From a virus, in the IMG/VR virus record IMGVR_UViG_3300002052_000634, positions 1 through 64,000 of that record: DNA of 64,000 nucleotides; one strand, 5' to 3'. Under the pieces are notes generated by a model that had not been told where the DNA came from, made no database searches, and saw nothing but the letters and a program-made list of their open reading frames with translations. Positions 5,686 to 48,690 of this stretch are shown in pieces (the stretch's first letter is position 1; the number at the start of each line of letters is the position of its first letter). Both the position numbers and the translations under genes were made by a program.

Positions 5686-6408
5686 TTACTCCTGTGCAGG
5701 GTCTTCAGCGAATACCGCATAGAATCTCCAAACATTAGCTTCATCATCCCATACCACGCTACTTTTACTATCATCTGAAGTATCAAGTAACGGTGATTTC
5801 ATTTCTACTTCATCTTCACCTGTAGTCATAATCTCTCCAGTTTCGGGGTCTTTACGAACTAAATAAGTATTTTCAACATCTATATATTTACCTCCAGCTA
5901 CCCATTTTTGTGTTGATACATCAAACTCAATGTCTAAATTACCTATTTTAGGAATAAATTCACTTTGTCCATCTTCTGTCTTTTTTTCAACGGTTTTAAC
6001 CTTTCCATTTCTTGACCAAAATTGCTGAGTATGTTTATTTAAAATTTCTCCTTCTTCATCTAATAAATTACCGTTGTCATCAGTTTCATATTCTACTAAT
6101 TCTAAAGTTGATATATCTAAAGCTCCACCAGCGTATCTAGAATGTCCATGTTTATTATATCCTTTACTAGGTTCTTCTGGTTGAGCATTAGAAGGAGGTT
6201 TTATTATTTCAGCATCATTCCAGGGTAAAATACCTAATCCAAATCCTACTTTAGGGTCTACAGGCATAACTTGACTCATATCTATATTTTTTACTTTAGA
6301 ATAAGGAACGATAGATTTATTTTCTAAATTTTTAGATAAATCATTTACTTTAGATTGTAGAGAGGCTATCTGTTGTTTTAATTGTTTTATTTCTTCGTTA
6401 ATAGTCAT
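5686..6408 (-). CDS. Putative tail tip protein
   Basis: N-terminal coiled coil; position after hub-like gene. Confidence 0.45.
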   Translation of the reverse strand: MTINEEIKQLKQQIASLQSKVNDLSKNLENKSIVPYSKVKNIDMSQVMPVDPKVGFGLGILPWNDAEIIKPPSNAQPEEPSKGYNKHGHSRYAGGALDISTLELVEYETDDNGNLLDEEGEILNKHTQQFWSRNGKVKTVEKKTEDGQSEFIPKIGNLDIEFDVSTQKWVAGGKYIDVENTYLVRKDPETGEIMTTGEDEVEMKSPLLDTSDDSKSSVVWDDEANVWRFYAVFAEDPAQE

Positions 6409-6427
6409 TTATTAAACCTTTCTAAGG

Positions 6428-9400
6428 CTACGTTGTAAAACGAAACCTTGCCCTATTATCAGGAACGAAATGATTAGGAATAGACATTTTTCTTCTATAA
6501 TATTGCCCATTTTGTAATTGGATAGTTACTTGGAAATTCGACATATTATATGTCATAGAAATTATATTCAAAGGATTCTCAGTAACTCCATCTATTTGAA
6601 TTCTATTAGATAATTCTATCCCATAAGTTACTGCACTATCTAAAGTTACATCGATAGACCCTCTGATAGATTTATAAGCACTATTACTTAATTGCCAATA
6701 TGCCAAATCTTCAGCGAAATCTGTATCATCCCAAGAAGGTACAATTATCCTATTTCCATCGGCATCTAAATAAGAACCTCCGATTTGAATAGATAAATTT
6801 GTTAGTTGTAATAAATCTATAATAGTTTCTGAATATGTGCCTACTTTATCAGTTATAAATAATAAGGGATTAGAAATATCAATTTCGGGGTCTTCAGATT
6901 CGTCATCAGTATTAGAATAATACTTTTTTTTCCATAATTTCAATCTAATCATAGGTGCTCTTATTTCTTCAATTTCTCCATAATCGTTTTTTATAAAAAG
7001 ATAAATAGGTTCATTAAATATTAATTTTTGATTGTCATAGTCTATAGTGAATCCTTCCGTTAAAACTCCTTCATTTAAAGAACATTCCCACCACAAACTG
7101 TAAGGTAATATTACTTCTACTTGAGGAGGATAACGGTCTGTCCATGATTCTGATTCTGGATTTAAAAAAGGAAGTTCATATTTAGTAAAAACTGTTTTGT
7201 ATTTTTCATTATCTTCTGTTTTATGCCAATCCCATCCGTAACCATTATCGGAATTTTTAGATAAAACTTCATAATCTTCATCCCAATCTGGATTAACAGC
7301 AGTATTGATATTTTCGTACATAAAAGACGGATATTCTTTGGTTTCTCCCGTATCATTAAAATTACGAATAACTTTATCGCCCATTTGTACTCTTAATTTG
7401 TTTACTATAGTAGATATATCTTCAGTGAATTGATGCCTTAATACTTGATATAATCCTAAATTTTTTCCAATTTCTTGACGTTCTAAATCTATAATCGAAC
7501 CTCTTCCTGCTGTCCATAATTTTTTATTTTCATCCTTATCATAATACCACCCATAATTCCCACAATTCGTAATTAAATCGGTAGTTACTTCGGATTTTCC
7601 AATTCCGAATAAATTCATTGTCTGTGGAATAAAATTTCCTATTCCAGGAGACCATCCTAGTTCGTTTGTTAATGCTGTTGAAATATTATAATAATACTTT
7701 TCCTTATTATCCACTGGTTCATGTCCGACAAAAAAGTAAAGTTTTTCTCTATTTTCTTTCCAATATAGATTATTGCAATTTATTCTAATTGCCTCTGGAG
7801 TGCTCGCAGGGGTAATAGAAGTAATATATCCTTTATATAATAGCCAGTTATGATAATAAATCGTGACAACAGATTCTACTGATGGTTTTGTGGAATCGTA
7901 AGCTCTTCCTAATTCAAAAGTCGCTGTATGTGCTCCATTTACAATCTTAGTAATACTTATACTGTCTACATTCAAATCTGTTTGTTCGCTTCCTCCTATA
8001 TATACTTTAACATACTCTTTTCCTAAAGATTGAAATCCTGTATCTCCAGGTACTTGATAATCTGCTAATACCCTTACGTCGTTATCTACATTATTAGTGC
8101 TTTCTGCGAGAGTACGAATATCATTATCAAAATCGGAAATATCTCCATTAACCGCAGACATTAAATTAACAAAATAAGAAGTAGACCTGACAGCAGTATT
8201 GAACTTTTGGTCTATATCAATTTCTTCTTCTTTTACTGTTCGAATTTTTTGACTAATATCTTTCCTAACAGTGGCTAAGAATTCAAATTCATCTCCTATT
8301 GTTATAGTAGCTTCATCTTCTTCTTGACTAGTTACAGAATCATCTCTTAATAGAGTGATTTGGTCATCTAAAAATACAGGAACGAAGTTGATGTCATATC
8401 CTATATAATGGTCATAAGTTTCATTACCGCTAAATGCACAAGGAGACGAAGTACGAATAAGATAATTATCCTCTGAGATATTAATAAATTCAGGGTCACT
8501 TGTAATAGAATTAGTTCCTGCACTTACTCCATCTACGTTAGTGTTACAGCTATAATAATCATTATAATCCACGTCAAATGAAATATTGGAATCGGTTTCT
8601 TTTATTCCAGTATCCCAATCATATATAATATTATTATGTACATAAGCAGTTCCAATACCATCGGCATCGTTGAAAAATATTCCTTCATCAGAACCAGAGC
8701 CAACTAATGTGTTATTAATAATATTTATATTTCCATTGTAATCTTGACTTCCTCCTATTTCAATAGCTTCTGTAACAGTATCGTAAATTAAATTGTATTG
8801 AATATCTATTGTAGAATTTAATCCCCAACCACAATAAATTCCAAGATTAACATCGTAAATAATATTATTTTCTATGTAAATATCAGTATTATTATAAGGT
8901 TCAATCCCCGCTCCATTACAATGCCTAATAATACAATTTTTTACTTCTGGAATATGTCGTATTGCAGTTACTGAACCCTGACCTGCATATTCTACTATGG
9001 CATAATGTACATAAGAAGTTTTTGGAGTCGTTACATTCCCATCGTTAATATATTCCCAATCTCCTTTTGCAGGATTGCCTCCATATAATGGTAATTTATT
9101 AGCGGAAGTAAATAAAATAGGATTTTCTTCTGTTCCATCTACTTTTATGGCAGTTCCGTTGGACATTATAGTAATTCTAGTCCCTGCCTCAAAATATATC
9201 TCACATCCAGCTTCTATGGTTAATGTTGCTCCATTAGCAATTGACACATTACCAATTATTCCATGAGGATTATCTTCAGCTTTCCAAGTTTCATTAGAAT
9301 ATATAGTGCCTTCGTGATAAGTTCTAAAGAAAATAATTCTATCGTCTAAAGATATAGTGTCATCTACTCTTAAAATTTCTTTTGTCGGACTTACTAAAAT

Positions 9401-43589: not shown

Positions 43590-43748
43590 TTATTTTTCTA
43601 ATTTCGTTAATTCATCATCAGTAATGGTACAACATACAACATTCTCATCTTCATTATAATAAACAGCATAACCTTGTCTAACTAGAGCAGTTATAAGTTG
43701 GTCTGTATAATTTTTGTCTAATATTTGGATTTTAAGTTCGTATTTCAT
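43590..43748 (-). CDS. 52-aa hypothetical protein (not in ORF track)
   Basis: MKYELKIQILDKNYTDQLITALVRQGYAVYY...; overlaps the end of the Mom-like gene. Confidence 0.5.
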   Translation of the reverse strand: MKYELKIQILDKNYTDQLITALVRQGYAVYYNEDENVVCCTITDDELTKLEK

Positions 43749-44337
43749 TTAGAATTTTCTTTCTGGTTTTTTTATTCAATATTTTTATAAATCTTTTTTT
43801 TAAAGGTTTTTTCTTTAATTCTAATCTATTGCCATAAATTTCTTTCATTTTCCCAACTGCTTGTATTCCATGTTTATCATACAAGGTTCTCGGTGAAATT
43901 CTTTTACCATCAATAAAAAATAAAGGATGACCGTCCTTTCCAATAATTCCATCAAATATCCATCCACTTGCTTTATATACCATTCCATTATGACCAGCAA
44001 AAGGGTCTGAATATGTAACAATCAAATCATAATTATATGATTTTTTGATTTTTTTTATTACTTCTGCTGTTAAACTACTCATACTCCATTTGTGGTTATC
44101 TTTACCGACCATTCTTGCTAATTCAATAACTTTTATATTTTTTTGACTGTATTTTTTTTCATAAATCCTCGACCTACAATTTGTAAATACCAAACAACCT
44201 TCTTCGTGTCCATAAGCAAATAAAATCCCTTTTACTTCTCCAAGATAATGCCATTTATTTAACATAGTATTTGCTATTTTTTTATCCAATTTGATAATTG
44301 GTGGAGTTTTCTGTAATCCGCTTAATTTGTAATTCAT
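43732..44337 (-). CDS. mom: Mom-family adenine-modifying GNAT (copy 2)
   Basis: WHYL, IELARM, IVTYSDPFAGHNGMVYKASGWIFDG, KKRFIK. Confidence 0.8.
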   Translation of the reverse strand: MNYKLSGLQKTPPIIKLDKKIANTMLNKWHYLGEVKGILFAYGHEEGCLVFTNCRSRIYEKKYSQKNIKVIELARMVGKDNHKWSMSSLTAEVIKKIKKSYNYDLIVTYSDPFAGHNGMVYKASGWIFDGIIGKDGHPLFFIDGKRISPRTLYDKHGIQAVGKMKEIYGNRLELKKKPLKKRFIKILNKKTRKKILNEIRT

Positions 44338-46272: not shown

Positions 46273-46296
46273 GAGGGAGAATATATATTCTCCCTC
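46273..46296. terminator. Perfect 24-bp palindrome/hairpin
   Basis: GAGGGAGAATATATATTCTCCCTC, about 30 nt after the small membrane ORF. Confidence 0.5.
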
Positions 46297-46325: not shown

Positions 46326-46481
46326 TTACCCTTTAATAAAATGACCAACTACAACAGCACCTATTCCTACTAATGCCAATATAGCTACTATAGGATTAAT
46401 TTTAGCTACCATAATCCCTGCTACTGCTACCGCAGTAACTCCACTACCCTGAACTATAAGACCTATTTCTTTTCGGTTCAT
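46326..46481 (-). CDS. 51-aa two-TM membrane protein (not in ORF track)
   Basis: MNRKEIGLIVQGSGVTAVAVAGIMVAKINPIVAILALVGIGAVVVGHFIKG; GGAGG RBS; own promoter. Confidence 0.7.
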   Translation of the reverse strand: MNRKEIGLIVQGSGVTAVAVAGIMVAKINPIVAILALVGIGAVVVGHFIKG

Positions 46482-46534
46482 AATTTCCTCCATGTAAACA
46501 TTACTGTATATAATAATTTGTTTCTAGTACCTAT

Positions 46535-46563
46535 ATTATATCATATAATATGTTTGGTGTCAA
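46535..46563 (-). promoter_or_regulatory. sigma70-type promoter
   Basis: TTGACA-17-TATAAT with extended TG; close match to the 38850 promoter. Confidence 0.85.
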
Positions 46564-46573
46564 GGTTTTAAAT

Positions 46574-47193
46574 CTATTTATTTTTGTTTAGTAAATCAAA
46601 ATTTATCTTATATCTTTGATTTTTTCCTTTTGGGTAAGGTAATACTTTATATCTTAAATTATGTCTAAATACTGTTTTGTCTGCCTTATTGCCAAGAAAT
46701 AAGATATACCTGTGTTTTGGAAACCAGGCTACTCTTTCTGTAAAATCTCCTACATAATGTCTAGGATGTTTTCCTCCTTTTCCTTTTATATGAGTTCTTT
46801 TTTTTTCCCACATCCAGTATATATAAAATTTAATGCTTGATATATATATCCAAAATGATTCATTTTTGTGTCACTATAACTAACAATTATTTTCGTTTTT
46901 TCAATTTGTTTTAAACATCTAGAAACAAAAAAAGAAAAGCTATTTTTAGGTAAGTTTTCTTTTATAACTAATCTATTAAGTTCTAATACGAATTTTTTAA
47001 AAGGTTCTCCGCAAATGCCTTTGCATACATTAGGACTTGCAAGTTGTCCAAAGGTACATACTCCTATCATTTCTTCTTTATCAAATAACCCAAAAGCTAC
47101 TGATATAGAAGGTATCCTTTTAGCGTAATGAATATTTAATAACCATTTTTTAGTATCTTTATATTCTATTCTTCTAACTTCATATTGTATCAT
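46574..47193 (-). CDS. mom: Mom-family adenine-modifying GNAT (copy 1), split by a -1 frameshift at GGG-A9 (ORFs 46786..47193 and 46574..46813)
   Basis: IHYAKR, FGLF..IGVCTFG, LELNRL, IVSYSD..HFGYIYQALNFIYTG; second frame has KHRYILFL..LPYPK. Confidence 0.8.
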
Positions 47194-47207
47194 ATTTTGC
47201 CTTATTT

Positions 47208-47277
47208 TGGAGCGAAGAGGTCGATTTTACGCCATCTTAACTCTGGAAGAGTTATGTTTTAATTAAACTATCTTCGC
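47208..47277 (-). tRNA. Non-canonical tRNA-Gly(UCC), 70 nt, CCA encoded
   Basis: GCGAAGA/TCTTCGC acceptor, U73, CCA; D stem GTTT/AAAC; anticodon arm TAACT-CTTCCAG-AGTTA; degenerate T arm. Confidence 0.85.
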
Positions 47278-47283
47278 AATTCT

Positions 47284-47312
47284 ATTATATCATATATTAC
47301 TGTTCGTGTCAA
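47284..47312 (-). promoter_or_regulatory. sigma70-type promoter with predicted +1 at tRNA G1
   Basis: TTGACA-17-TATAAT with extended TG; G1 is 7 nt after the -10 box. Confidence 0.85.
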
Positions 47313-47319
47313 GGGTACG

Positions 47320-48690
47320 TATCCTTTTTTTTTTTTCTACTATGTCACATCTCCACTCCGTTCCGTTCCGTCATTTCACTAATCCTTACCCTTCCAGGGG
47401 GCTACTTTGTCAGAAAAACTATACATCTTTTGTGACAACTATACCTTTACTTTCTGACCATAATACAAACTGCTAATGTTTACCCTACCTCAATGTTCAC
47501 TAAATAGTGAACTATAATAATCCAGTGAACCTTAATGTCTCATATATAATGGACATTTTGCGACAATGGACTTTTCTAAATAGGGTATTCTAACAGTTAT
47601 ATTACCCCATTTATGCTAAACGTTACCCCATTAATTACCTAACGAACTGCCGAATTCCGTACCTTGTTAGGTAAGCCCTCTTACGTAGATATAACTAAGT
47701 AACGTGGCGTATATACGTGTATATACAGGCTTATATAGGTTTATATAAGTTTATGTACGTTTCCGTATAATTTCGCTTTTAGCGTTTCGCTTAATGTGAA
47801 ATGGGTATTTAAACGTACCGCTAGGGGGCGAGTGTAGCTCTAGGAGCATTATTTAAGGCTTTTAAGGGTAGGGTGACGGTAGTAATTTTAGGAGCGTATG
47901 GAACGTAATTGTGTCATTTTTTGAGGCGATATGAACCAATTTTAGGGCGTTACAGATGCGATTAGCCGAAGGAACGGAGCGAAGTGGAATCGGGGTATTT
48001 GTTATTGTTCGGAGCGATAGCGGTCAGAAACGGTTCGTTATGGTTCGTTTTGGAACGTTATTGGCGTGAAATGGGGTGATAGTAGGGGTTTAAAGTATCA
48101 AAAAACTAGCTTTTGCTAATCTTAACCCCTATGGTCTTATATTTATAACTTATTGATATATAAAGACTTATATATATTTACTTTAGGCTATAATTTATTA
48201 TTATAACCTTTATTACTTTAAATTCCCATAAAAATATATTTTATATAGATTTGCCTATGTTTGTATATGTTTACCTAGCTTTATATACATTTTAATTATT
48301 ACCTATTTATTATTTTAACTAATTGATACATAAAACTTTATAAAGATATTTAATAACTAACTATTATTTATATTAAAGTGACTTTTACATCTACATAACT
48401 AGCTATTTATTATACTAATTACTTATTATAGATATTTAATAAATGGACATTTATTATCAGGCTTTTTTAAAGGATTAAATAAGTTAGAGGTATTATCTGA
48501 CTATTTATTTACTTAACATGAGATAGAATTATTAAAAAAGTTTAAGAAGTAGGGGTTTTATAAAGATATTTAATAAGATAGGTTATTATCTAGCTTTTTA
48601 TACTGTTAATAGCAGATATCCAAGGAATAAACTGACTTTTTATTTTTTTAATTGTAGGGATAATGTTAAGATAGACAATAGCTTAATTTA
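47320..48690. other. Non-coding divergence region with hairpins and repeats (origin or packaging/terminus candidate)
   Basis: About 1.4 kb without ORFs; several inverted repeats; C-rich to G-rich switch. Confidence 0.45.

Follow-up and report, generated by a model that had tools for sequence, protein, structure and literature searches.

A tRNA-Gly(UCC)-like RNA linked to Mom-family genes in phages, a candidate glycyl donor for DNA modification

Introduction

Why would a phage keep a single, atypical tRNA-like gene directly ahead of a gene for a DNA-modifying enzyme? The question arises from a 64,000-nt stretch of viral DNA (the window, positions 1 to 64,000 of IMG/VR record IMGVR_UViG_3300002052_000634), which is part of a phage record of 100,617 bp (100.6 kb) from marine-sediment metagenomes. 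On the minus strand of the window, a promoter is followed by a 70-nt RNA that resembles tRNA-Gly with the anticodon UCC, then by a 14-nt spacer and the ATG (47193) of a Mom-family gene, here called Mom-A; a second Mom gene, Mom-B, lies 2.2 kb downstream on the same strand. In phage Mu, Mom moves glycine from Gly-tRNA-Gly to N6 of adenine in double-stranded DNA (Silva et al., Nat Commun 2026, PMC13219725; bioRxiv 2023), and besides Mu Mom only two metagenomic homologs are known to carry out such Gly-tRNA-dependent modification of N6-adenine (Silva et al.). It was only in 2026 that a charged tRNA was published as the source of this glycine, and in the authors' account Mom scavenges host resources and host tRNA (PMC13219725). 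A phage tRNA or the gene neighbourhood is absent from both versions of that work (bioRxiv 2023; Nat Commun 2026), and text searches of limited coverage, which do not prove absence, found no paper linking a phage tRNA to Mom.

The structure of the RNA, its conservation, and its tight and recurrent linkage to Mom can be demonstrated by comparing sequences. As for its role, we consider it fairly probable (roughly 60%) that the 70-nt RNA is a phage-encoded glycyl donor, derived from tRNA-Gly(UCC) and functionally part of the Mom modification genes. Transcription from the consensus promoter would yield the RNA as the 5' portion of the Mom-A message, and a cut after its CCA would free it. The host glycyl-tRNA synthetase (GlyRS) would then charge it with glycine, and the charged RNA would serve as the glycyl donor for Mom-B, and also for Mom-A if a frameshift at a run of nine adenines (A9) in that gene is read through. 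The product, N6-carbamoylmethyl-adenine, would shield the phage DNA from restriction. By analogy with the staphylococcal tRNAs that feed the Fem transferases, the abnormal D loop and T arm probably make the RNA a poor substrate for EF-Tu and the ribosome, which would keep this supply of glycine apart from translation. We favour the donor role in part because it also matches the sole biochemical fact known for the Mom family. If it is correct, this would be the first viral tRNA kept for a role outside translation and the first of its kind to serve DNA modification. It would also provide a genomic marker for tRNA-dependent DNA modifiers among the uncharacterised Mom/DruA-like GNATs, as well as a natural and orthogonal-looking pair of tRNA and enzyme.

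Structure and conservation of the RNA

The acceptor stem of the window RNA has 7 bp, among them G1-C72, C2-G71 and G3-C70, and is followed by U73. The D stem has 4 bp and closes a loop (AAUUA) without GG (G18G19), while the anticodon stem has 5 bp and carries the loop CUUCCAG, with the anticodon UCC, ahead of a variable region AGAU. There are no mismatches in any of these stems. The T arm is short, with GGCG, a 6-nt loop UAAAAU and CGACC forming 2+2 pairs around a bulged A; its loop has no T54-Psi55-C56 (no UUC) and there is no 5-bp T stem, so that a canonical elbow is not seen. Taken alone, the RNA has the cloverleaf as its minimum-energy structure (-17.8 kcal/mol, z -3.2), with only 1 of 200 shuffled sequences doing as well, and it is closed in all three reading frames. 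In bacteria, the GlyRS identity set consists of G1-C72, C2-G71, G3-C70, U73, C35 and C36, and all of these nucleotides are present in the window RNA.

Scored directly with the Rfam tRNA model (RF00005), the RNA reaches 38.4 bits, above the gathering score of 29, and this single copy is the sole Rfam tRNA match in the 100,617-bp record. Standard ARAGORN reported no tRNA in the window or the whole record. Its permissive mitochondrial mode called Gly(tcc) at the RNA, plus 10 likely false calls elsewhere, and a filtered cmscan of 46400-47500 gave no tRNA match even at E values up to 10. The speed filters of cmscan can lose atypical A/T-rich tRNAs such as this one when direct scoring retains them. 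We also considered a remnant of a phage attachment site, which is ruled out by the full cloverleaf, the single copy, the position in the middle of the record, and the lack of a partial repeat.

Related RNAs stand beside other Mom genes. Among 218 Mom loci, L189, L186/L188, L181/L182, L185, L195 and L245 have a tRNA-Gly(UCC)-like cloverleaf on the Mom strand, 6-47 nt ahead of the gene; in L245 there are two RNAs, one ahead of each of two Mom paralogs. A covariance model built from the window sequence alone recovers the RNAs of L189, L186/L188, L181/L182 and L185 at 20-46 bits, and it also recovers that of L195 and the two L245 copies. Other routes to relatives gave little: 25 viral-contig loci with an exact match to the 17-nt anticodon arm were all judged to be chance, a blastn search with one RNA family member against cultured phages gave no match, and a single-protein search of viral contigs found no close relatives of the window Mom.

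The final alignment comprises 24 distinct sequences. In this alignment, which was guided by the model and fitted to the structure in a way that favours pairing (a plain MAFFT alignment was structurally poor), standard pairs fill 97.9% of the cells, and sliding the 3' partners by 1-3 columns lowers this to 36-52%. Compensatory changes on both sides are found in 18 of the 20 pairs, and 0 of 500 shuffles reach the observed values. The anticodon stem, for example, reads UAACU, CUUUU, CGGAA, CCUUG or UCACU, each time with its complement. The distance from the slid controls, and the number of stems that are fully compensated, leave little doubt that the RNA is a conserved structured element.

These results bear on several claims of an earlier, sequence-only reading of the window. 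The parts of the 70-nt RNA that it had listed (stems, loops, UCC, U73 and CCA) were all confirmed by the sequence and the fold, as were the D loop without GG and the shortened T arm. Every GlyRS identity element that it had seen is present and is kept across the family. The comparison it had proposed, a search for adjacent tRNA-Gly-like RNAs and stem covariation near Mom homologs, came out positive in many phage lineages.

Linkage of the RNA to Mom genes

The pairing of the RNA with Mom is seen in well over a hundred other phage contigs, and it emerges from searches that make no reference to Mom. We scanned all IMG/VR contigs for CTTCCAG, 11-15 nt and GTGCAARTCC, a pattern that combines the UCC loop with a TGC-type T loop. 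Of the 71 loci obtained, the model assigns a cloverleaf to about 30, which make up 12 sequence families, counted by eye on the sequences, and 10 of the 12 touch a Mom-family or DruA-type gene. In one of these ten (L300), Mom starts 17 nt past the RNA. A second scan used TTCCAR, 9-13 nt, GGCGG, 7 nt and CCGACC, which describes a T arm with a bulged A that the window has in a shortened form. All counts given for this bulged-T-stem class, here and below, are among the matches listed. An acceptor stem is present in 80 of 96 distinct matches, and 70 of these 80 tRNA-like matches have a Mom domain no more than 250 nt away on the same strand (the RNA precedes it in 39 and follows it in 31), whereas a Mom neighbour was found for none of the 16 without an acceptor stem; the profile used for the Mom neighbourhood was built from 26 relatives and may miss divergent paralogs.

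On a tree of 218 Mom sequences, the tRNA linkage needs at least 10 state changes, 6 of which are forced by well-supported branches, compared to 26.7 for shuffled labels. The linkage is therefore clustered yet present in several parts of the Mom family. Mom-A falls beside the tRNA-less L110, and Mom-B falls within a set rich in tRNA-linked genes, on a long branch. The overall pattern suggests that many phages supply a glycine-carrying tRNA that their Mom needs. A different role that we considered, as a decoy for host toxins that target tRNAs, fails to explain the linkage to Mom.

A few loci depart from the usual arrangement. In L316, the RNA (6328-6400) overlaps the 3' end of a gene (6395-7171) whose product matches Pfam DruA (PF14236, 5.7e-19) and not Mom, which extends the pairing to the DruA branch of the GNATs. 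L167 has two tandem family RNAs (249-325 and 345-427) before a gene for a 455-aa protein that is not Mom, followed by four Mom paralogs. The L167 loop UUUUCCA, taken as a 7-nt loop, has the anticodon UUC (Glu) with C37; taken as a 9-nt loop, it keeps UCC-A. A tandem tRNA-like pair with the loops CUACCAG and CCUUCCAG and TGC-type T loops is found in L255 (5073-5229), in L267, L285, L290, L306 and L315 (the same pair), and in L298 (11888-12042). The phages that carry this pair (the L255/L315 family) are large, encode homing endonucleases and 2OG-Fe(II) oxygenases, and have no Mom within a few kb.

Conserved and relaxed positions

Across the 24 relatives, the positions that matter for charging are strongly kept (C2-G71 in 24/24, G1-C72 in 22/24, G3-C70 in 21/24, U73 in 22/24). 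UCC followed by A is found in the anticodon loop of nearly all of them, and most have an encoded CCA. The two members with A73 also carry A1-U72, a combination that suits a different type of glycyl-tRNA synthetase. The anticodon UCC is constant across 30% to 62% G+C, and CC-A is kept even by members with anticodon loops of 6, 8 or 9 nt (L195, L186, L167), by a copy with G33 (L258), and by one with a degenerate arm (L161).

Other parts of the molecule are more relaxed. The T loop starts with TGC rather than TTC in L189, L186, L181 and L245, which were found via Mom and were not selected on their T loops. Most members with a TGC T loop have no GG in the D loop, although some members keep it, and the bulged A lies in the T stem, where EF-Tu binds. 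The Rfam tRNA model gave scores of 31, 22 and 20 bits for three relatives, compared to the 64 bits reached by a normal tRNA that one of the searched records contains, and it found no match in two 77-86-kb phage records of relatives.

Could the RNA simply take part in translation, as an ordinary tRNA for GGA/GGN codons or by refilling a Gly-tRNA pool that Mom or host toxins have drained? tRNA-Gly(UCC) is among the tRNAs commonly carried by phages, including T4-like and jumbo phages, and one Mom gene (L199) sits in an array of 9 ordinary tRNAs. The ordinary phage tRNAs resemble the window RNA in being tRNA genes carried by a phage, but they usually come in arrays, have normal scores and are linked to codon usage, whereas the window RNA stands alone, has atypical features and is tied to a single enzyme gene. 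The window RNA does pass the Rfam gathering score, and some D loops in the family keep GG, but the family scores of 20-38 bits stand far from those of a normal tRNA. C32 together with UCC is said, in a passage of Rietmeyer et al. 2021 (PMC7826273), to let unmodified tRNA-Gly read all four codons; loops of 6, 8 and 9 nt and the G33 copy, however, cannot decode normally. The adjacency to Mom is also too regular for a translational tRNA in both scans, as is the constancy of UCC over such a range of G+C, and the window copy combines a T arm of four pairs plus a bulge with a 6-nt loop without T54-Psi55-C56 and a D loop without G18G19. We therefore regard a translational role as quite improbable.

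Comparison with known systems

The closest parallel for a glycyl donor outside translation comes from Staphylococcus, where the non-proteogenic tRNA-Gly(UCC) species NP1-3 feed the transferases FmhB, FemA and FemB (Rietmeyer et al. 2021, PMC7826273). In place of TTC, their T loop carries TGC or TGT; pseudouridine is absent, position 19 is not G, and they bind EF-Tu and the ribosome poorly (PMC7826273). The window RNA shares the sequence marks of this class (UCC, a T loop without UUC, and no G19). Both would be dedicated tRNA-Gly(UCC) species serving an aminoacyl transferase with a GNAT fold outside translation, and the TGC T loop of the staphylococcal tRNAs recurs in phage L189, L186, L181 and L245, along with several phage D loops without GG. 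However, the staphylococcal genes are chromosomal, confined to one bacterial genus and not beside the fem genes, and their acceptor is a peptidoglycan precursor rather than DNA. The T loop of the window RNA is UAAAAU and not UGC. The staphylococcal tRNAs are better seen as an analogue than as members of the same line of descent.

Mu Mom needs the terminal riboadenosine of its donor and rejects Gly-tRNA-Ala (PMC13219725), and its residues R111 and S124 have been shown to be essential (Silva et al., PMC13219725). Mom-A and Mom-B belong to the same family (PF25680), and the equivalents of R111 and S124 are kept in both and are nearly invariant in the alignment with Mu Mom, whose product protects DNA from restriction. 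Unlike the window, where a tRNA-Gly-like gene is joined to Mom and the activity is predicted, Mu has no tRNA of its own. The window also differs from Mu in having two Mom paralogs (up to four in relatives) and no Com-type regulator.

Mom genes without the RNA and reading frames that contain it

Several observations weigh against a private donor RNA, and the first of these is that Mom clearly works without one. No tRNA-like RNA was found in the 80 viral contigs with the Mom genes nearest to that of the window (47-57% identity) or in L110, the closest DNA-level relative that could be read (73% identity). There is no room for the RNA beside Mom in four cultured phages (Bacillus phage Riggi, Listeria phages LP-114 and A511, and Staphylococcus phage Alsa_2). 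Species-representative genomes yielded only two close relatives of the Mom subgroup, in metagenome-assembled genomes (MAGs) of a Nanoarchaeota (L321) and a Pedobacter (L322) with 46-50% identity, and neither has a Gly-type tRNA-like RNA beside Mom. U34 is conserved as well, a base that GlyRS should be able to do without. A TTC T loop is kept by about half of the bulged-T-stem class, which makes being unfit for translation a tendency and not a rule across the family. The window copy itself could be decaying, since the adjacent Mom-A is frameshifted and the T arm is shorter than the family norm. Mu Mom, moreover, accepts all three E. coli isoacceptors, that is, those of its host (PMC13219725).

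The remaining difficulty lies in the reading frames. Where the RNA precedes Mom in the bulged-T-stem class (46 distinct members), the Mom frame crosses the entire RNA without a stop in all 46. The phase is shared in 45 of the 46, such that the 3' strand reads P-T-S-x-L-Q, and an in-frame start codon lies 4-19 nt before the RNA in 44, this being ATG in 35 and the commonest spacings being 10, 13 and 16 nt. The conserved Mom domain sets in within a few bases of the CCA, and in 25 of the 46 no start codon separates it from the RNA. Embedded examples include L324-L440 (such as L337, L354 and L195, 675-1337), L181 (2324-3163) and L245 (1306-2277 and 2398-3294). When the RNA is downstream of Mom, it starts immediately past the PYPK motif at the C-terminus, which is the position at which Mu Mom ends; the Mom open reading frame (ORF) runs through it in 22 of 32 cases and in others stops in the first acceptor-stem bases. 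This downstream class is exemplified by L248 (4379-5083), L250, L265, L307, L272, L287, L293, L258 and L309, with ORFs that either span the RNA or stop at a TGA formed from acceptor-stem bases 6-8. In this unusual gene architecture, gene callers would hide the embedded RNAs as "hypothetical" N- or C-terminal extensions. The N-terminal extension of P0004 (73% identity), ...IFQFEDSGSNPTSSLQ, seen as a peptide only, resembles a translated family RNA (compare ...GGSIPTSSLH in L195).

Excising the RNA would destroy the mRNA of the embedded class, which fits a cis-acting role at least as well as a donor role. On such an account, the RNA is a tRNA mimic within the mom mRNA, as a 5' leader in the window and as codons ~4-30 in many relatives, and controls the synthesis of Mom. 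It would bind Mom, GlyRS or EF-Tu, or draw RNase P, so that the output of Mom would track the supply of tRNA-Gly, and it would be compatible with a donor role. There are precedents for tRNA mimics in messages, namely the thrS operator of E. coli and the 3' tRNA-like structures of plant viruses. Like the embedded Mom class, these place a tRNA-shaped fold within a message, where it is bound by tRNA-binding enzymes, but they are partial tRNAs or stand at the 3' end of the RNA. We know of no full cloverleaf among them that is translated in frame inside the gene of a tRNA-using enzyme.

Control in cis explains the embedding best, and it would suit a gene such as Mu mom, which is toxic and tightly controlled. 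The window fold, too, has the position of a 5' leader, with the -10 box 6 nt before G1 and the ATG 14 nt past the CCA. The common phase may merely reflect the one stop-free frame of a conserved sequence, although a start codon placed so regularly upstream is less easily dismissed than the shared phase. What a cis-acting mimic explains less well is the pattern of conservation. GlyRS reads C35 and C36, and the persistence of UCC through changes in loop size speaks for genuine charging, for which a free 3' end is required; Mom itself is thought to read the acceptor end of the tRNA (PMC13219725). The encoded CCA and U73 are likewise kept, and A73 co-varies with A1-U72. There are also copies outside any ORF, including the window RNA, the tandem RNAs of L167 before a non-Mom gene, and the L255/L315 pairs without a nearby Mom. 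We therefore consider a cis-acting mimic unlikely. Because the anticodon CC and the discriminator base are conserved, the CCA is encoded, and free-standing and tandem copies occur, a synthetase acting on the free RNA would account for these features.

A tentative way to join the donor role with the embedded class, possible but rather doubtful in our view, is a transcript with two mutually exclusive fates, in which it is either translated into Mom or cut by tRNA-processing enzymes to release the glycyl-donor tRNA. Translation would pass through the tRNA-like codons in the embedded class and would begin, in the window, at the ATG 14 nt past the CCA. If true, enzyme and cosubstrate would be made in a fixed, self-limiting ratio from a gene that codes for both an RNA and a protein, and a toxic DNA modifier would be under a new kind of control.

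Organization of the locus and the Mom genes

The features of the locus are collected in Table 1. The -10 box ends 6 nt before base G1 of the RNA, which suggests that transcription of the Mom-A message probably starts at or beside G1. Together with the Shine-Dalgarno-like sequence and ATG that Mom-A has of its own past the CCA, this start site would make the RNA the 5' leader of the mom message. No terminator-like site was seen between the RNA and the Mom start in a site check of the 47194-47207 region.

Table 1. Positions of the RNA, the promoters and the Mom reading frames in the window.
Feature	Coordinates	Strand	Description
sigma-70-type promoter	47284..47312	-	TTGACA, 17 nt, TG-extended TATAAT; 12/12 matches
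tRNA-Gly(UCC)-like RNA	47208..47277	-	70 nt, cloverleaf, encoded CCA
Spacer	47194..47207	-	14 nt, A/U-rich, Shine-Dalgarno-like AAGG
Mom-A 5' frame	46786..47193	-	135 aa; PF25680 E 1.5e-31, 110 bits; profile 2-132 of 202
A9 run breaking the Mom-A frame	46798..46806	-	GGG-A9-G, versus GGT-A7-G in nearest full-length relative
Mom-A 3' frame	46574..46797	-	79 aa; aligns with the C-terminal part of relatives, KKRTHIKGKGGKHPRHY ... PYPKG
Second perfect promoter, same type	46535..46563	-	Directly 3' of Mom-A; heads downstream minus-strand genes
Mom-B	43732..44337	-	Intact, 201 aa; PF25680 2e-19, 70.5 bits; profile 6-193 of 202

Both Mom genes score well above the curated cut-off of Pfam Mom PF25680 (27.1 bits). 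Mom-A is not a single ORF but is split into frames of 135 and 79 aa by 2 additional nt relative to the nearest full-length relative, and both parts align with full-length relatives of 203-233 aa. Logan contigs from two marine-sediment DNA runs cover 46400-47336 with zero differences and an equal length of the A run, and the truncated 135-aa product is recorded on 4 contigs. With an identical run in two sequencing runs and a product on 4 contigs, the break in Mom-A looks real in the DNA. A -1 ribosomal slip on A_AAA_AAA, or one A added by the polymerase, could restore the frame.

This break raises the question of whether the module, although real elsewhere, is a decaying remnant in this phage, with Mom-A as a pseudogene and the RNA eroding. 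The frameshift of +2 nt is stable over two runs, the T arm lacks a pair and a loop base of the family hallmark, and the nearest relative, L110, already lacks the RNA. In the window, however, the promoter is perfect and the acceptor, D and anticodon stems have no mismatch, and in the T arm both partners of the missing pair are gone while the helix is kept. The A9 run at the break is slippery, and -1 frameshifting or slippage of the polymerase there would bring back the frame. In addition, 79 codons of the Mom-A 3' frame remain open and conserved, and Mom-B is intact. We consider such a remnant very improbable, and if the RNA does act as a glycyl donor, Mom-B is a possible second user of it.

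The sequence-only reading had described a consensus promoter at 47312-47284, which is borne out (Table 1), followed at the end of the RNA by 14 nt and the ATG of a Mom-like GNAT. The spacer, the ATG and the family assignment hold, while the gene proved not to be one ORF because of the A9 frameshift. Its wider proposal was a private tRNA that is charged by the host GlyRS and escapes EF-Tu and the ribosome. This is partly supported, by the linkage to Mom and the covariation, by the use of Gly-tRNA-Gly, which it had named for Mom and which is confirmed for Mu Mom (PMC13219725), and by the parallel it had drawn to staphylococcal tRNA-Gly(UCC), whose altered T loop and poor EF-Tu binding are likewise confirmed (PMC7826273). 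The Mom-A frameshift, the second paralog and the embedded class had escaped its notice, as had the possible control in cis that the embedded class suggests.

Several Mom paralogs in tandem are common among these phages. There are 2 in the window and 4 in a row in L167 (1809-4356), and further cases are found in L245, L195, L258 and L287. Two types of Mom sequence recur, one with HYAKR or HYSxR...PYPK and the other with QLHFGVF...GTQCGDGTIYRASGF.

Near-copies of the ~40-nt promoter are found at 46535-46563 and at positions 69614-69654 and 94940-94978 of the record (L002, L003). The promoter module cTTGACAc..aac..ta.TATATGATATAAT thus occurs at least 4 times in the phage genome and, from its sequence, appears to be a class of strong promoters specific to the phage. 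Just upstream of the promoter ahead of the RNA is a run of 13 A (47325-47337), at which the Logan contigs of both runs end; one of these contigs is 2 bases short at this run, and the assembly is least certain there. A perfect 10-bp palindromic hairpin (GAGGGAGAAT/ATTCTCCCTC) lies at 46273-46296, after a gene for a 55-aa membrane protein, and is terminator-like on both strands.

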